DNA from: Halobacteria archaeon
Lineage (GTDB): Archaea; Methanobacteriota_B; Thermococci; Methanofastidiosales; NM3
Reading direction: 5' to 3'
DNA length: 64,000 nt
Assembly: GCA_036733165.1 (NCBI GenBank)
Contig: DAINBB010000004.1
Location: 7,198 to 71,197, forward strand
Below the pieces are notes generated by a model that was not told where the DNA came from, did not search any database, and saw only the letters and a list, made by a program, of their open reading frames with translations. The translations under genes and the position numbers were made by a program. Shown piece by piece: positions 1 through 56,106 of the stretch. Every line of letters starts with the position of its first letter. The first letter of the stretch is position 1.

Positions 1-55
1 AAAAAGAAAATTAAATAAATATCAGAAAGATGGTGATGATAGGGCATTAGCAATA

Positions 56-553
56 ATGGGTGCTCTAATTGTAGAAAATACTTTAGATGAACTTTTATCA
101 AAATGGATTAATAATTATAATATTCTCTATAAGAATAGAGATTTTTCTTTTTCTATGAAAATCGATTTGACATTAGCTATGAGAATAATACCAACTGAAT
201 TATTAACGGCAATAGATAATATAAGAAAAATAAGAAATGTATTTGCACATAATTTAGATGCCATTTCTTTCGAAGAGATAATTAGTAGCGATAATATAAG
301 TGAAAATGAAAAAAAACATCTAAAGAAAATAATTGATATTAATAAAGGATTATATGAAAAAGGTTTAGAAAATAAAAATATCACATCTTATAAAGATGCA
401 TATTATGATACTACAATAAGTATTTTATTAACTTTAACTATTTTTTCAGAACAATTGAGAGTTTTACATGAGTATCTATGGGAAAAAAACAATGCTGATA
501 AATTAATTGAAAAAATATGTAAGGAAACACGAAAACCTAAAAATTCGGAGTAA
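56..553 (+). CDS. HEPN-domain protein, DUF4145-like (Abi-like); hypothetical
   Basis: 165 aa ORF in a ~30% GC stretch. The motif 'IRKIRNVFAHNLD' fits the R-x4-H-N HEPN signature of DUF4145 (compare the typical '...R.lGN.aAH'). Wholly alpha-helical-looking sequence. Lies next to an integrase remnant and a tRNA. Confidence 0.45.
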   Translation: MGALIVENTLDELLSKWINNYNILYKNRDFSFSMKIDLTLAMRIIPTELLTAIDNIRKIRNVFAHNLDAISFEEIISSDNISENEKKHLKKIIDINKGLYEKGLENKNITSYKDAYYDTTISILLTLTIFSEQLRVLHEYLWEKNNADKLIEKICKETRKPKNSE

Positions 554-558
554 ATCTA

Positions 559-744
559 TCATATAATCCCTCTGTTTTTTTGTAGTAATATGGAGGGGTA
601 CACCATAGTGGATTGTATATCCCTATGCCTTAACCGTTTCTGAACTAAGGTAATATCTGCCCCGTTAAGTATCATATTCGTGGCCAATGTGTGCTTAATA
701 CGTGCGCTGTTACCTTCTTCTCCATCCGTGCCTTTCAGGCACAT
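559..744 (-). pseudogene. Tyrosine recombinase/integrase C-terminal fragment (remnant)
   Basis: The 61 aa ORF 'ARIKHTLATNMILNGADITLVQKRLRHRDIQSTMVY' matches box II of tyrosine recombinases (H-T-x-A-T ... L-R-H ... catalytic Y). A stop codon sits immediately upstream in the same frame, so the other ~250 aa of an integrase are absent. It lies between an AT-rich island and the 3' end of tRNA-Arg. Confidence 0.55.
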
Positions 745-869
745 TCCTTAACTATGAGATTAATTCTCTCATGTGATAAGGGCCTCTTATACATCGATAC
801 AATGACTTACATCAAACTAAGAGTTATTTGCTCCATAAAAGAAAATAAGCGTCGTGCTTGCGTTAAAGG

Positions 870-943
870 CGGACCCGGTGGGATTCGAACCCACGATCTA
901 CAGCTTAGGAGGCTGTCGCCCTATCCAGCTAGGCTACGGGCCC
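870..943 (-). tRNA. tRNA-Arg (anticodon CCU)
   Basis: The reverse complement folds as a cloverleaf: GGGCCCG acceptor stem (G3-U70), D loop AGCTGGATA, anticodon stem ACAGC/GCTGT with loop CUCCUAA, T arm GTGGG-TTCGAATC-CCCAC, discriminator G. CCA is not encoded. Confidence 0.85.
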
Positions 944-951
944 ACTATCCT

Positions 952-2814
952 TCAAACAGGTGTGGCATATAAAAATCTTTTCTTTTTCACACCGTTGATG
1001 ATTTTCTGACCCAAATCGCTGTTCTTCTCCACCCTGAGCATAGCCTTCTTGCCGAGCGTCGTTGTGAAAAGCTCCTCGTCCCCAAGGAAGAACGTCATCA
1101 TCTTGTTGGCATACCTGTAGTCCATCGAGAGGTTCACGTACTTCTTCAAGACCTTCGCACCGACAGGCACCTCGCTTTGGTATTCCTCGTCGGTCTTCAC
1201 GTCCAGCTTGAGGCCTAGACGCTGCTCTATCCTCGAGATGTTCTTTCCCTTCTTCCCGATTATGAGCGCCTTGTCCATCGGATCGACATATACGGAGGCC
1301 CTGTTGCTGCCGGTCACCTCAACCCTTACGTCTATGCCGGGCACCATCCTGAGGATTTCCTCCTCGATCGATTTCTGCGCAAGCACGTTCGCAGGGGAGC
1401 GCTTCTTGCTGCTGCCGACCTCCATGACGACCACCTGCTCGCCAAAGGTGTATATCTCATAGACAAGCTGATTGTCCAACTGGTTGTATACTTCTATCAC
1501 AGGCCTGGCGAGGTCTGCTTCGGCCATTCCCGAAGGGACCTTTACCTTGAACTGGAGCTTGAATATCTCGTTGACCTCGCCATCCCCTATATGTATGACG
1601 GTGTCTATCAACTGAGGTATTATGCCAAGCTCGATCCTGCCTATGAATCTCTGTATGGCATCGATGGTCCTGGATGCATGGACCACACCTATCATCCCAA
1701 CGCCCGCGAGGCGCAGGTCCGAGAAGACCTTGAAGTCATCGGTCTTCCTCATCTCATCGAATATCGTGTAATCTGGCCGGACCAAAAGCAGGATGTCGCC
1801 TGTCTTGGACATGTCGCCTGCCAGGGCCGTATACTGCGTTATCTCATCAGAAACTTGAAGGTCCCTTGGTTTTTCCATGGTCTTGACGATCCTTCCCATA
1901 TCGTTGTAATATTCCGCAATGGCCTGCACAAACGTGGACTTTCCCGCCCCCGGAGGCCCTGCCACCAGGATGCCTTCCGCCACTCCAAGCCGCTCCTTGA
2001 GGCTTGAGCTCAGCCTATAGTCGTCCAATGCCATTTTCCTGACAGGGTGAACGGCCGTTATCTCGAATCTGTCCGAGAAGGGCGGTTTAGTGATCGCTAT
2101 TCTGTAATCGACCAGTTGCACGACCGTGGCACCGGTCTCCTCCATTTCTATGAAACAGTCCCTGGTGTTCTTCGCCCTCTCCACAATGTCGTAGGATATC
2201 TCCTCAAGCTCGCTCTCATCAAGTGATGAGTCCCCCTTCAACAATTTCATGTCTCCGGGCCTGCCTTTCTTGTAGAGAGGCGGCAATCCCGCCTTCAGAT
2301 GGACCGACATGGTTGTCTCGTCGAAGAAGTCCTCGATCCGCATTGTGGTCTCCGAGAAGGGTTCTAGGTATATCGTGTCGATACCCTTTGACCTCGCTAT
2401 CTGGGACTGCACCCTGTCGCCCGTGATGAGTGTGGCATTGTTGTCGGAAGCGACATTTCTCACAAGGTCGTCTATTTCACCAAGATAAGCATACATTATC
2501 TCCCTGGGGTCTGGACGTTTGCCATAGTGCGAGAAGGGTATGGATGCTTGTTCGCATATGTTCTTGATCTTCATCAGTTCCCTAATCCCCGCCTCCCCGG
2601 AGGACTTGCCTGTATTTGCTTGATGTTCTATCTCCGCTATGACAGGCTCTGGCATTATTACCTCATCCACCGCGTTGGATTCCAGGAAAGTAGAGAATCT
2701 GCCGTCCAGTATCACAGAAGTGTCAGGGACTATAATCATCGTATATTCTTGAAATGACCTTTTTAAAAAACTATCTAATTGTGAAAGATAGTAATATATA
2801 ACAAATAACGACAT
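952..2814 (-). CDS. PIN-domain / PilT-PhoH-like P-loop ATPase / KH-domain protein (archaeal COG1855-type)
   Basis: N-terminal PIN fold ('MIIVPDTSVILDG...'), Walker A 'AGPPGAGKSTF', C-terminal KH motif 'LIIGKKGKNISRIEQRLGLKLDV'. The true start is probably the internal Met of 'MIIVPD', near 2739. Confidence 0.85.
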   Translation of the reverse strand: MSLFVIYYYLSQLDSFLKRSFQEYTMIIVPDTSVILDGRFSTFLESNAVDEVIMPEPVIAEIEHQANTGKSSGEAGIRELMKIKNICEQASIPFSHYGKRPDPREIMYAYLGEIDDLVRNVASDNNATLITGDRVQSQIARSKGIDTIYLEPFSETTMRIEDFFDETTMSVHLKAGLPPLYKKGRPGDMKLLKGDSSLDESELEEISYDIVERAKNTRDCFIEMEETGATVVQLVDYRIAITKPPFSDRFEITAVHPVRKMALDDYRLSSSLKERLGVAEGILVAGPPGAGKSTFVQAIAEYYNDMGRIVKTMEKPRDLQVSDEITQYTALAGDMSKTGDILLLVRPDYTIFDEMRKTDDFKVFSDLRLAGVGMIGVVHASRTIDAIQRFIGRIELGIIPQLIDTVIHIGDGEVNEIFKLQFKVKVPSGMAEADLARPVIEVYNQLDNQLVYEIYTFGEQVVVMEVGSSKKRSPANVLAQKSIEEEILRMVPGIDVRVEVTGSNRASVYVDPMDKALIIGKKGKNISRIEQRLGLKLDVKTDEEYQSEVPVGAKVLKKYVNLSMDYRYANKMMTFFLGDEELFTTTLGKKAMLRVEKNSDLGQKIINGVKKKRFLYATPV

Positions 2815-4457: not shown

Positions 4458-6971
4458 ATGGAACTCCCACCTGAAAAACTTGGTTCATTCTACATCGGAT
4501 CAGAATATGATATTGAAAGCGATAAGCTTCTTGGCATCCCCATAAACTATGACTCCAGGGACCTTACAACCCACGCCATCTGTTTCGGGATGACGGGAAG
4601 TGGAAAGACGGGCCTCTGCATAGGAATTCTGGAAGAAGCGGCCTTGGACAAGGTTCCGGCAATAATAATAGATCCCAAGGGGGACATCACCAATCTGCTG
4701 TTACAGTTCCCAGATCTCAAGAGCCAGGACTTCAGGCCCTGGGTAAATCCGGACGATGCCAGAAGAAAGGGAATGGACATCGATGAATACGCAGAATATA
4801 CATCAAAGACATGGGAAAACGGCCTAAGGGAGTGGGGAATAGATCGAAAAAGAATAAGGGACCTAGGCCTGAGCGTCGACTTTAGCATCTATACCCCGGG
4901 TTCCGATGCCGGCAGGCAGATAAGCATACTCGGCGGGCTTGCGCCTCCAGAGATAGATTTTCAAGAAAATATGGAGAACGTGAGGGAACAGATCAATGGA
5001 ACTGTGGCGGCATTGTTGGGCCTTATCGGTCTGGATGCAGACCCTCTAAGAAGCAAGGAGATGATATTGCTCACAAACATATTCGAGCATTACTGGAGCA
5101 AGGGGGAGGGTTTGGACATCGCCAGGCTGATAACTTCCATCCAGTCGCCGCCGTTCAAAAAGCTGGGAGTGTTCGACCTTGATACATATTATCCGGAGAA
5201 AGAAAGATTCGAACTGGCAATGGCATTGAACAGCCTAGTGGCATCCCCCAGCTTTGGGGAATGGTTGAGGGGGGAGGAACTCGATATAGGCAAGATGCTC
5301 TATGATGATAACGGCAAGCCTAGGCACACCATCTTCTATCTTGCCCACCTCACCGATGAGGAAAGGATGTTCTTTGTTACATTACTTCTGGAGAACATAT
5401 TGACATGGGCAAGGAAACAGAGCGGCACTACGAGCCTGAGAGCCTTGCTTTACTTTGATGAGATATATGGTTTCATGCCCCCTGTCGCCAAACCACCTTC
5501 AAAGGCGCCATTGATGACCCTTGTGAAGCAGGCCCGAGCCTTTGGACTGGGATTGATGATGGTAACGCAGAACCCAGTTGACATCGATTACAAGGGGCTT
5601 ACGAACATAGGCACATGGTTCATAGGGAAGCTTCAGGCCAAAAGGGATAAGGAAAAGGTGTTGGAGGGTCTTAAGGGGACATTGTCGCCAAAAGACATGG
5701 AAAGGGGCGTTGATTACGAGAATATCATTGACAGACTGAAGAGCAGGGTGTTCCTGATGCACAACGTCCATGAGGACGGACCGGTCATCTTCAACACCAG
5801 ATGGGTTATGAGCTATCTGAGGGGGCCGCTGACCAGGCCACAGCTTAAGAATCTCCTGAAGATGAATGGCAAGGAAGTAACGGTCCCGAAAGACGTGGAT
5901 GTGGCCACACCACCCGTTATCGAAAAATGGGATACCACATCCTCGCTCTCATCAAGGCCCTCACTTTCCCCGGACATAGACCAGATATTCCTGCCGATAA
6001 ATGTGGGACGGGGATCGGCAATGGATACGGTATATGAAAGTGTTGGACAGGATACGGACATCAAGGGCGTCTACATCCATTATGCACCACATATCCTGGG
6101 GGAGGCCCAAGTCCGTTTCTTTGACAAGAAGCGCGATATCGATGACCTTACAGAGGTCGCCATGATGATAGGGCCCGGGGAGAAGACGGATCTTGTGGAC
6201 TGGGGCAAGGCGGAAGAGCTCTCCATCGGTCCGGACAATATATTGAGCGAGCCAGAACTGCAGGCGGCTGGGGGTAATGTCCTCTATTCCAATGTGCCTG
6301 ACAGTGTCAACGACCCAAGGGAGATAAAAGGCTTGGAGAAGGAATTGTCCAATTGGCTGTACTACAATAAAAGATCGCTGATAAAGGAGCACAAAGGTCT
6401 TGAGATTTTCCAAAAACATGATGAATCCGAGAGGGACTTCCTGGTAAGGCTCCACCAGGCCGCCAGAGAAAGAAGAGACAAAGAGGTAGACAAGCTCAAG
6501 GATAGCTACGAGAAGAAGATTGACAAGCTGTCACAGAAACTTGATGATCTTGAGCTGGACCTAGAGTCAGACAAGGCAGAGTATGAGGCAAGGAAAAGGG
6601 AAGAGATGGTCGGCATGGGGGAGTCGGCACTTAGCTTCTTCATGGGCAGGAAAAGGACCAGCGGCATATCCACCATAGCCAGGAAGAGGAGGCTGACGGC
6701 CAAGGCCGGCCAGGATATAAAGGAAACCACCCAGGATATCGAACAGGTGAAGAATGACCTCTCCAAGTTAGAGTCGGAGCTTGAGACCGCCGTGAAGGAT
6801 ATCACTAAGAGATGGGAGAATGTCGAAGAGGATATCACAGACCTCGAGATCAGGCCAAGGAAGTCGGATGTGGACATCAGGATGATGGCCATTGCATGGA
6901 AACCTTACTGGAAGATGGAGTACGAGACCCGAAATGGAAGCGCCGTGACAGAAGTTGGAGCATATAAATAA
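4458..6971 (+). CDS. DUF853/YjgR-like HerA-FtsK superfamily P-loop NTPase with C-terminal coiled-coil extension
   Basis: Walker A 'GMTGSGKTG' followed by 'IIIDPKGD', Walker B 'LLYFDEIYGF'. 'VTQNPVDIDYKGLTNIGTWFIGKLQA' aligns with E. coli YjgR '[26 protein letters not shown]'. About 250 aa of C-terminal charged heptad-like sequence ('DKEVDKLKDSYEKKIDKLSQKLDDLELDLESDKAEYE'). Confidence 0.7.
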   Translation: MELPPEKLGSFYIGSEYDIESDKLLGIPINYDSRDLTTHAICFGMTGSGKTGLCIGILEEAALDKVPAIIIDPKGDITNLLLQFPDLKSQDFRPWVNPDDARRKGMDIDEYAEYTSKTWENGLREWGIDRKRIRDLGLSVDFSIYTPGSDAGRQISILGGLAPPEIDFQENMENVREQINGTVAALLGLIGLDADPLRSKEMILLTNIFEHYWSKGEGLDIARLITSIQSPPFKKLGVFDLDTYYPEKERFELAMALNSLVASPSFGEWLRGEELDIGKMLYDDNGKPRHTIFYLAHLTDEERMFFVTLLLENILTWARKQSGTTSLRALLYFDEIYGFMPPVAKPPSKAPLMTLVKQARAFGLGLMMVTQNPVDIDYKGLTNIGTWFIGKLQAKRDKEKVLEGLKGTLSPKDMERGVDYENIIDRLKSRVFLMHNVHEDGPVIFNTRWVMSYLRGPLTRPQLKNLLKMNGKEVTVPKDVDVATPPVIEKWDTTSSLSSRPSLSPDIDQIFLPINVGRGSAMDTVYESVGQDTDIKGVYIHYAPHILGEAQVRFFDKKRDIDDLTEVAMMIGPGEKTDLVDWGKAEELSIGPDNILSEPELQAAGGNVLYSNVPDSVNDPREIKGLEKELSNWLYYNKRSLIKEHKGLEIFQKHDESERDFLVRLHQAARERRDKEVDKLKDSYEKKIDKLSQKLDDLELDLESDKAEYEARKREEMVGMGESALSFFMGRKRTSGISTIARKRRLTAKAGQDIKETTQDIEQVKNDLSKLESELETAVKDITKRWENVEEDITDLEIRPRKSDVDIRMMAIAWKPYWKMEYETRNGSAVTEVGAYK

Positions 6972-7082
6972 AGGGAAAAAGGTATCCATCATCGGGGGTC
7001 CTCTTGATGTATGGGCCTCGATGTTTACATTTATATCAAGATAAATTATTGCTTACATAAATGTTAATTAAAAATATATGGT

Positions 7083-7105
7083 GGGATAAAAAAAGAAAAT
7101 ATCCC
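7083..7105. terminator. Hairpin (GGGATA-11 nt A-rich loop-TATCCC) between convergent genes
   Basis: Inverted repeat gggata/tatccc directly 3' of mscL (minus) and ~110 nt 3' of the ATPase gene (plus), in an AT/T-rich context. Confidence 0.3.
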
Positions 7106-7109
7106 ATGC

Positions 7110-7481
7110 TTATTCGATATTGAATCTCTTGGCTGCCTTGATGATGCCGAAAATGACAAGCATGATCACAAGGAATGTGAGAACTGCACCAAAGAAATGG
7201 CCTATCCTGAAAGGACCGAGCATGATAGCCTCCCAGCTTGAGGCATCGGGCACGACGTATTCCAGAAGCGGCATGATAAAATCATTTACGAGCGCTTGCA
7301 CAAGAGCCCCAAGATACATTGCTATGATAAAGGCCACGGCAAGACCCAGCAGCTTGTACTTCCTAATGAATTCCATAAACTCTTCCTGTATGCCCTTGGG
7401 CCCAGCTGGGGGAGCTGGCGGCTTGGGTGTCAGAAGTTCTCTAATCTGTTTTAATTCTTCAAGCATTTCCTCTTCTCGCAT
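7110..7481 (-). CDS. mscL: Large-conductance mechanosensitive channel MscL-like
   Basis: 'EFMEFIRKYKLLGLAVAFIIAMYLGALVQALVNDFIMPLL' aligns with the MscL TM1 core ('[40 protein letters not shown]'). Second TM plus short tail. Unusual N-terminal charged/Pro-rich 35 aa. Confidence 0.7.
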   Translation of the reverse strand: MREEEMLEELKQIRELLTPKPPAPPAGPKGIQEEFMEFIRKYKLLGLAVAFIIAMYLGALVQALVNDFIMPLLEYVVPDASSWEAIMLGPFRIGHFFGAVLTFLVIMLVIFGIIKAAKRFNIE

Positions 7482-7636
7482 TTGAAAACACCCCTAATCA
7501 AAGGATGGATGGGTATTGAATATTAACATTACTAAAAGAACCTTTCGATGTGGCGGAGATAGTATTATCATTTCCCAATATTAATTCTTAAGAGAGATTT
7601 ATATAATATAAATAGGAATTATAATTAGGGATCATT

Positions 7637-7819
7637 ATGGGAGGCAAGTTCGAATACTACAAGGACAAAGCGGGAAAGTACCGCTTCAGGTTGAAGGCCT
7701 CAAACGGCCAGGTTATTGCATCGGGAGAGGGATACAACTCCAAGGATGCATGCATCAACGGCATGGAGAGCGTCAAGAAGAACGCTCCCGATGCGCCAAT
7801 GGTGGAAGTTGAGGGATAG
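7637..7819 (+). CDS. DUF1508 (YegP-like) domain protein
   Basis: 60 aa: 'FEYYKDKAGKYRFRLKASNGQVIASGEGYNSKDACINGMESVKKNA' is the canonical YegP/UPF0339 repeat. Confidence 0.75.
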   Translation: MGGKFEYYKDKAGKYRFRLKASNGQVIASGEGYNSKDACINGMESVKKNAPDAPMVEVEG

Positions 7820-8040
7820 ATTCCCTCTTTTTCTATTTTGTCTTTAGAGTGTTTTTGATATCCGTTGGTAATCTAGAACCATTCAATACCAGAGCGATCC
7901 ATCTTGTCAAGATCCATGTTCCTATTTCCTCACATTTAAAATTCGGAGTTCAGGCGACAGGCCTTACTTGCACGAAAAATAAACATAAATATTATAAATG
8001 AATTTTCAAATGCCTATAATCAATATAGCATGGTGATAAC

Positions 8041-9639: not shown

Positions 9640-10427
9640 TACCTGTGGTCAAGGAAACTGTCAACAAGGTTGAGCTTCGAGAACCTGCCACGTGTGATGA
9701 ATGCCAGTGTCTCCTCCTTTCCCAGTATCCTGTCCCTTATCTCTTTTCTGGAAAATCCCCTTCCATCGAGTTCCAATACCGAATCTCCCATGGATGTCAG
9801 GTGTGATATCTTTTCCTCAATGACCTTGTCCGGCTCCTCGAACGGGCGGCCATGGCTGGGAAAGAGGATTTCTATGTCCAACTTCGATATTCGTTCCAAC
9901 GAGCCCATAGCATCGTATATGTTGACCTCGTCGCTGACCCATCTTGTCTTGCCCCACAGCACCAGATCGCCTGAGAAAAGATAGCGTTTCTCCGGCAGAT
10001 AGTAACCAACATGGTCATCGCTGTGGCCTGGCGTGTATATCTGCCTCACTTCAAATCCATCGCTCTCGACGGAATCGGGGAATATCGTGGGCTTTGAGGG
10101 CGCCACCCTGCCGGCGATGAAACACTCTATAAACGAGCTGTTGTCGGGGTCCTCCAGGCCCCTCACAGCATTCGCATGGCAATATATGGTGCAACTGTTC
10201 TGGTCCTGCACCACGGCATTGTTGCCCACGTGGTCATGGTGGCGATGCGATATGAATATGTTTTCTACCCCTCTGGACAGGGGCAGAATATCCGTACCCA
10301 TGTTTATCCCGGTGTCGAACATCGTGTTGCCAAATCTATAAACATTGGCGTTGAAAAGCGACCTCTTCAAGAACTTTTTTATCGTGATGTATCTCTCAAC
10401 ATCTCCATATTTCCTAATAGTTATCAT
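9636..10427 (-). CDS. Metallo-beta-lactamase fold hydrolase
   Basis: 'HRHHDHVG' (HxHxDH) plus downstream His/Asp ligands ('GHSDDH', 'SHG'). Convergent 4-nt overlap with lysK. Confidence 0.85.
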   Translation of the reverse strand: MITIRKYGDVERYITIKKFLKRSLFNANVYRFGNTMFDTGINMGTDILPLSRGVENIFISHRHHDHVGNNAVVQDQNSCTIYCHANAVRGLEDPDNSSFIECFIAGRVAPSKPTIFPDSVESDGFEVRQIYTPGHSDDHVGYYLPEKRYLFSGDLVLWGKTRWVSDEVNIYDAMGSLERISKLDIEILFPSHGRPFEEPDKVIEEKISHLTSMGDSVLELDGRGFSRKEIRDRILGKEETLAFITRGRFSKLNLVDSFLDHRY

Positions 10428-53954: not shown

Positions 53955-54028
53955 GCCCTCGTAGTCTAGCTGGATATGACGTCAGCCTGCGGAGCTGAAG
54001 ATCCCGAGTTCGAATCTCGGCGGGGGCG
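53955..54028 (+). tRNA. tRNA-Arg (anticodon GCG)
   Basis: GCCCTCG acceptor stem, D loop with GG, anticodon stem TCAGC/GCTGA with loop CUGCGGA, T arm CCGAG-TTCGAAT-CTCGG, discriminator G. CCA is encoded (to 54031). Confidence 0.85.
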
Positions 54029-54091
54029 CCATGATTCTTTATACTCCCGTTTAGGGCATATCGTTTATAATTATAAAAAAATACAAAGACA

Positions 54092-54724
54092 TCAGATGAG
54101 CTCTGACATCTCGATTAACTTTTCTAATATAAAAACAGGATCGAAATCGGTCAAGCTTTTGTATGACATTATGACTAGAACATCTTTCTTAGCAAAACGC
54201 ATTTCGATATATGTATAAGATTCCTCTTTTTCGTATCTGGATACTCCAACGTAATACTCAGTTTCATAGCTCGTTGCTTCGGTCCCGGAAGCTGGAACAA
54301 AGGTCCATCCATCACCAAAGGAGAAGTTCTCTTCGATGACATCCAAGGGGTATCTCATTACCAATTGAGTTAAAGTTTCCAACGGTTCGCCATTTTCATC
54401 AGGATGCCAAAATATCGCACACACGTAATCGGAAGGTTCTGGAAGGCCAGAATAATCTGTGAAATCCAAAGGAGTTTTAACGGAAATGAACGTCCAGCCA
54501 TCGTTTGTAGTATAACCTTGAACACTAACAAACTCCCAGCCATCTGCAGGTTTCTCGATGAGAATTGTTTCCATCCACCCAGGTAGCTCATCTTCGGTAA
54601 AGAGAAGATCTTCCAAAGTACCATCGTATAACTCAGCCTCATTGCCACCTATGTTGCCCACGACTGTAATTGACAACAATAGAACTCCAAGTACGGCTAA
54701 GAGACCATATCTTAATTTGGTCAT
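54092..54724 (-). CDS. Hypothetical secreted protein
   Basis: Signal peptide 'MTKLRYGLLAVLGVLLLSITVVG'. Acidic, aromatic-rich body. Lower GC than its flanks. Confidence 0.45.
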   Translation of the reverse strand: MTKLRYGLLAVLGVLLLSITVVGNIGGNEAELYDGTLEDLLFTEDELPGWMETILIEKPADGWEFVSVQGYTTNDGWTFISVKTPLDFTDYSGLPEPSDYVCAIFWHPDENGEPLETLTQLVMRYPLDVIEENFSFGDGWTFVPASGTEATSYETEYYVGVSRYEKEESYTYIEMRFAKKDVLVIMSYKSLTDFDPVFILEKLIEMSELI

Positions 54725-54845
54725 GATATGAAATAGAACTAACAAAATAAATAAATTGTCCCGATTTGGTATTATAATGATGGATTTCTTAGATCTACAG
54801 CCAATCAAGTTACTGGAAGGTGCTTACGCTAGAATTTGATTATAT

Positions 54846-55430
54846 CTATCGAACTGCACCATTCTTGAAGTTGTCGAACCAGTGATCCAATTCTTCATCG
54901 CTATCGGCCTTTAAAATTTTGAAAATCTCATAGGCGAATTCTACAGCTGCTGTTTCATTTGCAGTGACAAACCCGCCATCAACAACCACTTGTGCTTGAA
55001 CATATAGAGAACGTCCATTGTAGCCTTTTTGATTTTGAAACAGTTCCAGACTGTCACCCGTATGTTTTACATGATCAAGAAAACCATGCTTACACAAAAA
55101 GGTTGATGCACCACATATCGCTGCAATGGGAATATCTGATTGTATAGCCGTATGGATAAACTCAGCAATCTCATCATAGTCATTCTCTTCCCAAGAAAGA
55201 CCTCCTGGCAGAATGACAATCGCCACATTGTCTAAATCCTGATAATTATCTATGCAATGATCAACGCTTGCTTTGATGCCGCCCATTGATATCTTAGGGC
55301 AAGTGTCAATCGCGATGGTCTCCACCACATAGTCGGTATAAGAGTTGGTTGCTGCAATAACATAACTTGCCTCCCAGTCACACCAACGGTCAGTTAAAAA
55401 CAGGAGTATCTTATTTTTAGTCCCTTTCAT
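54846..55430 (-). CDS. DJ-1/PfpI-family protein (class I glutamine amidotransferase-like)
   Basis: 'IAAICGASTFL' nucleophile-elbow Cys, 'VILPGG'. Confidence 0.8.
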   Translation of the reverse strand: MKGTKNKILLFLTDRWCDWEASYVIAATNSYTDYVVETIAIDTCPKISMGGIKASVDHCIDNYQDLDNVAIVILPGGLSWEENDYDEIAEFIHTAIQSDIPIAAICGASTFLCKHGFLDHVKHTGDSLELFQNQKGYNGRSLYVQAQVVVDGGFVTANETAAVEFAYEIFKILKADSDEELDHWFDNFKNGAVR

Positions 55431-55804
55431 TACCAACACATCTCTAATACAAATAATCCAAAGTTCAGGTTCCAATATTTCGTTTTATTTCGATATATAT
55501 GTTATGCCACATATACCGTTTCATCACTATAAATATCATATTGCTAAGTTCCTTCAAGGCGCGTAAATTCCATCTGTATGCATTTCTTTGCCGTTTCAGA
55601 CCCTCATCGTTCCGTATCTCCAACTCAGGATCTCCTGTGCCGCAATGGCCAACATCGGCGATGTTCATTTCAATCTTGGAAACGGAGGACAATTTCTTGG
55701 TATTAATCTTGAACATGGCATCCAATATACTATCATCAATATATGAAACAACAGTGTCTCAAAAAAAAGAGAAAAATAAAAAAATTAAGGATATGGACAG
55801 ATCA

Positions 55805-55999
55805 TCATTTCAGGTGTATCTTACCCACTTCGTCCAAATGGAATATCTTTGAACATTCGAAGCATTCCAAGGCATACCCAATGTTCTGACCTGGTGATAA
55901 CGGACCGTGCTTGAAAAGAACGTACACGTCCCCTTCGCAGAACGGACACTTTACATCATCCTTAACATTAGCTAAATTGTATCTTTCAGCGTCTACCAA
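55805..55999 (-). CDS. Small zinc-ribbon protein, hypothetical
   Basis: 64 aa with 'CPFCEG ... CFECSK'. Confidence 0.3.
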   Translation of the reverse strand: MVDAERYNLANVKDDVKCPFCEGDVYVLFKHGPLSPGQNIGYALECFECSKIFHLDEVGKIHLK

Positions 56000-56106
56000 T
56001 GTTATTTTTATCCACCTCCATGCAAAAAGCTTGCACTACAATTTGTGAATACTAATTAAAATAATTTATTGTATAATCGATGGAAAATAAGAATAAAAAC
56101 AGAAAA

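Follow-up and report, generated by a model that had tools for sequence, protein, structure and literature searches.

An eroded tRNA-Arg(CCU)-integrated element with a surviving DUF4145-like HEPN gene is the probable start of a Candidatus Methanofastidiosa contig stretch

What is the AT-rich DNA with which a 64,000-nt stretch of archaeal contig DAINBB010000004.1 begins (hereafter the window, meaning the whole stretch), and how far does it extend beyond the first base? This end of the window holds part of a gene for a HEPN protein, a tyrosine-integrase fragment, and tRNA-Arg(CCU), and we conclude that it very probably lies inside a heavily eroded tRNA-integrated element of a Candidatus Methanofastidiosa archaeon, in which a gene for a probable HEPN nuclease or toxin has survived. 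The guanine-plus-cytosine (GC) fraction was 0.287 at positions 1 to 867 and 0.480 at 944 to 64000. An earlier reading of the bare letters (the sequence-only reading) had put these values at approximately 30% and 48%, close to the measured 28.7% and 48.0%, and had ended the islet at the 3′ end of tRNA-Arg(CCU), which AT-rich DNA does directly adjoin. The block was uneven, with GC of 0.231 at 1 to 553 and 0.385 at 554 to 867 (0.42 in the integrase fragment), the strongest AT-richness being that of the HEPN gene part; the minimum among other 553-nt stretches of the window was 0.32.

The DNA upstream of window base 1 was taken from metagenome contigs matching the window, which were located via a 620-aa protein with PIN, ATPase, and KH domains (PIN-ATPase-KH) and via the HEPN-like protein. 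Contig L006 (12.8 kb, JGI) differed from the window at 1 of 3,083 bases and places window base 1 at its base 9746, while L007, the end of an 81-kb ENA contig, was identical to the window over 10,553 bases. A repeat search (family D1) recovered a perfect 47-nt direct repeat on L006 (47/47 identical, spacing 1477 nt; plus strand GCGGACCCGGTGGGATTCGAACCCACGATCTACAGCTTAGGAGGCTG) that covers the tRNA from the anticodon stem to one base beyond the discriminator. For a 27-nt probe from this repeat, 0 chance matches are expected. The two copies, taken as attachment (att) sites, enclose 1,430 nt, and the 1,524-nt att-to-att stretch was identical in three independent assemblies (L006, L007, and L008/L025) from different samples (JGI 3300010350, JGI 3300025702, and ENA ERZ27264001), in each case inside longer contigs. 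On these contigs, GC of 0.21 to 0.36 occurred only between the att copies, and values outside both were 0.44 to 0.57. The duplicated tRNA 3′ segment that the sequence-only reading had proposed to look for is therefore present as a perfect copy, and that reading's claim that the window starts inside a decayed integrated element is borne out by an AT-rich insert bounded by the att repeat and the integrase remnant. The features of the insert and its borders are as follows, in window positions unless counted upstream of window base 1.

869 to 915 (L006 10614 to 10660), minus strand: proximal att copy, 47 nt, from the repeat search.
563 to 609 nt upstream of window base 1 (L006 9137 to 9183): distal att copy, 47 nt, from the repeat search.
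868 to 943, minus strand: intact tRNA-Arg(CCU), the integration target (ARAGORN; Rfam 870 to 943, 69.1 bits).
559 to 809, minus strand: tyrosine-integrase pseudogene remnant, last ~80 codons (Pfam PF00589, NCBIfam, phrog, and tblastn).
Lesions of the remnant: TAA at 807 to 809, TGA at 735 to 737, and a 1-nt deletion near 694 to 696 inside HVL[R]H.
Surviving features of the remnant: box II His at 625 to 627, catalytic Tyr at 598 to 600, and stop at 559 to 561.
810 to 867: 58-nt spacer from the remnant to att.
1 to 553 (stop at 551 to 553), plus strand: 3′ 184 codons (residues 45/46 to 228) of a 228-aa DUF4145-like HEPN gene.
233 to 250, plus strand: codons of the HEPN Rx4-6H motif R123-N124-V-F-A-H128, read from the sequence.
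317 to 454 nt upstream of window base 1, minus strand: 45-aa Cys4 zinc-ribbon open reading frame (ORF; PF07295, 4e-11).
952 to 2814, minus strand: 620-aa PIN, P-loop ATPase, and KH-domain protein, a core neighbor.

The 61-aa ORF at 559 to 744 (minus strand) alone passed the Pfam Phage_integrase cut-off (31.7 vs 27.1 bits, E = 1.6e-7), and the frame-repaired 78-aa peptide scored 52.8 bits on PF00589, 71 bits on NCBIfam XerA_Arch (model positions 189 to 256 of 263), and 7e-16 against the phrog_216 integrase. The peptide at 559 to 744, previously read as an integrase C-terminus, thus aligns to tyrosine-recombinase C-termini in Pfam, phrog, and NCBIfam. The same reading had noted an in-frame stop just upstream; the stop is real, but the true continuation lies in another frame after a 1-nt deletion. 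By tblastn the remnant mapped to two frames, with its upstream continuation in the other frame at window 794 to 696. Frame B reads M-Y-K-R-P-L-S-H-E-R-I-N-L-I-V-K-E-C-A-(TGA)-K-A-R-M-E-K-K-V-T-A-H-V-L, and after the deletion frame A reads (K)-H-T-L-A-T-N-M-I-L-N-G-A-D-I-T-L-V-Q-K-R-L-R-H-...-Y. The lost base falls in the codon completing the canonical H-x-L-R-H box, the Arg codon of which is destroyed. The catalytic set R-K-H-R-H/W-Y is also incomplete, the box I Arg and the Lys being deleted and the second His and the Tyr kept. The spacer at 810 to 867 held no integrase-like reading in any frame and is too short for the ~185 missing N-terminal codons, from which we infer a 5′ deletion. A word-indexed protein search with the remnant returned no matches, and no other recombinase or cognate integrase was found within the 64-kb window. 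An SSV-type partitioned integrase, considered because one frame stays open through att, was rejected: no Int(N)-like reading occurred at the distal att, and the proximal fragment is the last third only and matches Xer-type models.

The DNA on either side of the insert is that of the host. Beyond the distal att, the genes are, in order, CrcB, Usp, MBL-fold, a PK_C-domain protein, a 420-aa protein, Sm_multidrug_ex, and UbiA; on the other side of the element are PIN-ATPase-KH and an ABC ATPase. The tRNA-Arg(CCU) sequence was identical in loci L002 to L005 and L022 to L028. In the relative L002, from a metagenome-assembled genome (MAG) named 'archaeon NM3', the genes from Usp onward flank the identical tRNA on the corresponding side in unchanged order, and PIN-ATPase-KH was kept on the opposite side, giving synteny on both flanks. 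The insert was absent at tRNA-Arg(CCU) of relatives with an identical tRNA, and L002 and L026, which share the tRNA and the flanking genes, have other content in the slot. A scan of genome contigs with the tRNA 3′ part returned relatives only, and one with sequence from the upstream extension gave no match. The sequence-only reading had also raised the possibility of further defence cargo upstream of position 1. This did not hold, since core genes of normal GC, syntenic with the relative, follow right after the distal att. The neighbors beyond att showed no clustering of defence genes, and PADLOC matched the HEPN gene only. Inside the element, window base 1 is preceded only by the first 44 to 45 codons of the HEPN gene, by the 45-aa ORF with the zinc ribbon, and by spacer. 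The window thus opens in a fully delimited AT-rich relic of 1.5 kb rather than at the margin of a large defence island, and no hidden upstream cargo is to be expected.

Taken together, the locus very probably arose as follows. A virus, plasmid, or integrative element bearing a tyrosine recombinase integrated site-specifically, its attP recombining with the last 47 nt at the 3′ end of tRNA-Arg(CCU), which regenerated the tRNA and left a partial tRNA copy at the far end. Of the element, 1,430 nt are left between the att copies, holding a XerA/XerC-like integrase end, the intact 228-aa gene, and the divergent 45-aa Cys4 ORF; the integrase was inactivated by loss of its ~185 N-terminal codons, the 1-nt deletion, and at least one nonsense codon. 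The element is no longer self-mobile, and its perfect att repeats beside a lesioned integrase suggest a modest age, corresponding to no more than a few per cent of neutral divergence.

Two other accounts of the repeat and its insert were weighed against this history. The 1.4-kb unit might be a miniature att-bounded cassette that is still excisable or movable in trans by the integrase of a related full-length element. Both att copies are perfect (47/47) despite several integrase lesions, and the same tRNA slot varies among relatives; a perfect 47-mer is, however, compatible with a few per cent neutral divergence. Neither the empty-site sequence (AACGGATATTATAAACA + 47-mer + TCGCCCTATCCAGC) nor the circular junction (CGTGCTTGCGTTAAAGG + 47-mer + ATTTTAATACTTATTTT) was recovered, and there was no empty site of this lineage among the seven metagenome loci. 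The att 47-mer had no match in viral contigs, so that no parent virus was identified, and among metagenome contigs its two copies occurred in this population only. With no cognate integrase in the window either, we consider a mobilizable cassette very unlikely. An assembly artefact, or a local duplication of a tRNA fragment unrelated to site-specific integration, could also leave a repeat and an islet, and assemblers do struggle here, as the short contigs L001, L010, and L011 stop at or near the distal repeat. Against this, the att-to-att stretch is the same in all three independent assemblies, the integrase remnant sits exactly beside att, and the shift in composition is confined between the repeats. 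The repeat also runs from the anticodon stem to the 3′ end of the tRNA, as tRNA att sites typically do. An artefact or chance duplication is accordingly so improbable as to be almost negligible, and the eroded integrated element is retained as the reading of this locus.

Some contigs, including those just named, end close to the repeat. For the short contigs L001/L009, L010, and L011, the end falls at the distal att or slightly within it (555 to 592 nt upstream of window base 1), which suggests that assemblers break at the tRNA-fragment repeat; such breaks may be a reason that MAG contigs start or end near this site.

The gene that survived in the element proved longer than it appeared from the window alone. 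The sequence-only reading had listed 56 to 553 as an intact gene, but its frame is open back to window base 2, and the window edge cuts the gene; in identical contigs, the gene starts 134 nt before window base 1, at L006 9612, and its full-length product has 228 aa. NCBI lists this protein as hypothetical, from a MAG of a Candidatus Methanofastidiosa archaeon. The gene has a GC content of 22.6%, and a 228-codon open frame at such composition has a chance of ~4e-12, which indicates that it is intact rather than decayed. The closest homologs are themselves 23 to 28% GC and occur in archaeal contexts. A gene of 23% GC in a 48% GC host, with AT-rich closest homologs, suggests a fairly recent acquisition from an AT-rich archaeal lineage.

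To place the protein, a full HMMER search over 1.84 billion representatives was used, whereas a word-indexed protein search with the 228-aa protein returned only itself. The HMMER search yielded 423 relatives at E ≤ 1e-3 and 128 at E ≤ 1e-10 (cluster representatives), mostly of 200 to 250 aa. In a 60-member alignment, R59, E70, R123, N124, and H128 were invariant. The HEPN Rx4-6H motif is defined with a polar residue after the Arg (PMC3710099), and R-N-x3-H, its R, N, and H invariant in the 60 sequences, has this form; in the window it stands as R-N-V-F-A-H-N at 233 to 253. The best Pfam match was DUF4145 (PF13643), which spanned the motif region with 20.3 bits (E = 6e-4), and PADLOC CARF_HEPN matched through its HEPN half (E = 1.3e-6). 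The AlphaFold2 model (predicted local distance difference test 87.1, predicted template modeling score 0.85) is an all-alpha helical bundle that superposes on solved HEPN domains. Structure comparison of this model gave MtlR (10.7), YggD (10.4), HepS (9.0), and the archaeal HEPN protein AF0298 (8.7), with further matches at 6 to 7 to the sacsin HEPN domain, Csm6, and HEPN toxins. MtlR, DUF4145, and c2405 form one 'DUF4145-like' HEPN assemblage (Anantharaman et al. 2013, PMC3710099), and the fold and profile evidence therefore agree. By fold and motif, the 228-aa protein thus belongs to the DUF4145-like group of HEPN proteins and has a single domain.

Several observations nevertheless weigh against part of this picture, namely the identification of the gene as a surviving DUF4145-like nuclease or toxin gene. 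The DUF4145 score of 20.3 bits lies below the gathering threshold of 23.1 bits, and Foldseek returned nothing significant against the PDB. Homolog neighborhoods were heterogeneous, without clear defence islands. All recovered copies of the gene were 100% identical, so purifying selection is not measurable, and the gene could be a recently stranded passenger. The DUF4145/HEPN assignment of the sequence-only reading hence stands in part: the HEPN motif, the HEPN/DUF4145-type profile matches, and the HEPN-like fold were all found, and strict membership of DUF4145 was not. 'DUF4145-like' is justified for the 228-aa protein, strict Pfam membership is not. Across the family, 25 of the 60 members touched DUF4145 weakly, the best at E = 3.6e-5 and likewise below the gathering threshold in this sample; the family is a peripheral, unannotated DUF4145-like branch that Pfam misses. 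On the three points by which the sequence-only reading could be judged overall, there is an att repeat upstream, a HEPN/DUF4145 profile match, and an alignment of the remnant to integrases.

What the protein does can be approached through HepS, a single-HEPN abortive-infection anticodon nuclease of the Gifsy-1 prophage with the motif R100-N101-x3-H105 (PMC13043305; PDB 9oik/9oij). In a profile-versus-PDB comparison, the family profile aligned to HepS exactly on the catalytic segment, at a nonsignificant E = 0.26. No significant HepS homology was detected, phmmer gave no match, and the similarity is at the level of fold only. By analogy with characterized HEPN proteins, the 228-aa protein would oligomerize and thereby bring two R-N-x3-H motifs together in a metal-independent RNase site. 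It may act, as HepS does, as a toxin or abortive-infection nuclease carried by a mobile element, cutting tRNA or mRNA once triggered. On these grounds, it is probably a HEPN-type RNA-cutting defence or toxin protein. A broader proposal, which we offer tentatively and regard as somewhat doubtful, is that the family of ~420 clusters comprises stand-alone DUF4145-like HEPN nucleases in largely archaeal contexts that would work like HepS, being carried by integrated elements, sensing an archaeal-virus component, and stopping translation through tRNA cleavage. If true, this would constitute an abortive-infection system in methanogen-related archaea. To our knowledge, single-protein abortive-infection systems are essentially undescribed in these organisms.

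Two alternatives concern the protein and its small neighbor. The 228-aa protein might be a noncatalytic MtlR/YggD-like regulatory or RNA-binding HEPN protein, not a nuclease or toxin; MtlR and YggD are its best structural matches, and its R-N-x3-H residues are invariant across the family alignment. We consider this unlikely. The other alternative takes the zinc-ribbon ORF and the HEPN gene as a two-gene module, either a split RAZR or a toxin with a small partner. RAZR (PD-T7-4) is a defence RNase in which an N-terminal Cys4 zinc ribbon is fused to a DUF4145 HEPN domain (PMC13017515), and zinc-ribbon fusions of DUF4145 are also listed in PMC3710099. At this locus, the two ORFs are divergent neighbors 182 nt apart, and a Shine-Dalgarno-like site, GGAGGTGAT, precedes the TTG start of the 45-aa ORF by 3 nt. 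Their opposite strands, however, mean that they are not a split gene; PADLOC gave no PD-T7-4 match at E ≤ 1, a small Cys4 ORF within 1.5 kb was present in 0/7 homolog loci, and zinc-ribbon ORFs of small size are frequent in archaea, L002 and L003 also having one beside this tRNA. With strand and partner conservation both against it, a split RAZR or conserved module was rejected, and any two-gene module is very unlikely.

The neighborhoods of the homologs were mixed, including a VapBC pair, a 110-aa partner, a 600-aa partner, and an integrase 2 kb away. At the locus of homolog P0004 (L016 7783 to 8361, L018 8066 to 8284), an ORF with R-N-G-L-A-H lies two genes downstream of the 205-aa HEPN homolog and is possibly a second HEPN-like gene, judging from this motif. 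A divergent 218-aa Phage_integrase gene lies ~2 kb off, and no tRNA was found in the locus. This integrase (on L016) was considered as a better-kept relative of the remnant and rejected, the sequences being unrelated by visual comparison and the locus lacking a tRNA.

Other observations concern the tRNA slot in relatives and a further tRNA of the window. PIN-ATPase-KH adjoined tRNA-Arg(CCU) in all relatives examined and was called as 595 aa on some contigs. The slots of L002 and L003 hold a small zinc-ribbon ORF, followed in L002 by P-II and Amt genes. This ORF (CxxC...CxxC; ~340 to 480 in L002) lies on the opposite strand, right 3′ of tRNA-Arg(CCU), in a position like that of the 45-aa ORF of the window lineage and without obvious sequence similarity to it. 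In L026 the slot (6552 to 7985, from the tRNA to CrcB) contains a 147-aa flavodoxin-like ORF and ~0.9 kb of noncoding DNA at 25 to 27% GC, with no second att and no integrase. The ~55 nt directly 3′ of the L026 tRNA resemble the element-internal flank of the window (810 to 867; p ~ 0.002, local alignment with shuffling) and are unlike its distal flank; the L026 slot may preserve an older remnant of a related element, or may simply share a T-rich terminator. Within the window, GC dips to 39 to 40% at 54000 to 56000, directly 3′ of tRNA-Arg(GCG) (53955 to 54031, plus strand), where a 238-aa secreted/membrane-like ORF and a 209-aa DJ-1/PfpI-like ORF are found. A second tRNA-linked islet at 54 to 56 kb was rejected, as there were no mobile-element genes and no att-type repeat within 6 kb of tRNA-Arg(GCG).

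The feature belongs to ordinary, well-understood kinds, a tRNA-integrated element remnant and a DUF4145-like HEPN protein, and is unsurprising to a specialist. It offers one clean case of gene capture in uncultured Methanofastidiosa, in which the element has decayed and the foreign AT-rich HEPN gene is intact, and it flags an unannotated HEPN family. The mildly novel aspect is only that the gene comes from this unannotated, mainly archaeal-context family, whose nearest characterized functional analog is HepS.

Like other tRNA-integrated islets and prophage remnants, the insert has a direct repeat of the tRNA 3′ end, a regenerated tRNA, an integrase beside att, a foreign composition, and relatives that lack it at the syntenic site. 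It differs in being extremely reduced (1.43 kb), with about two-thirds of the integrase deleted, the rest frameshifted, and one sizeable cargo gene left. Compared with archaeal XerA and bacterial XerC/D, the remnant has XerA_Arch as its best profile, and HxLR[H], LxH, and the catalytic Tyr are recognizable. Unlike these proteins, it is a pseudogene fragment (71 bits vs the 220-bit cut-off) that adjoins a tRNA att and is not a dif-resolving housekeeping gene. The 228-aa protein resembles the DUF4145-like assemblage in its best Pfam match and in its best structural matches, MtlR and YggD, and differs from it in lacking fusions to restriction endonuclease, helicase, or zinc-ribbon modules. As in RAZR, a DUF4145-type HEPN effector is accompanied by a Cys4 zinc ribbon, but at this locus the ribbon is encoded apart, by a neighboring ORF of the other strand, and homologs do not keep the pairing. 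HepS is the nearest characterized structural analog with a defence role. The two differ in sequence (17% identity, E = 0.26) and in host, which here is archaeal, and the tetramer, tail-tip trigger, and tRNA cleavage are features of HepS, whereas the 228-aa protein is known here from its sequence and model. By this comparison, the 228-aa protein is a reasonable candidate for single-protein abortive infection in archaea.

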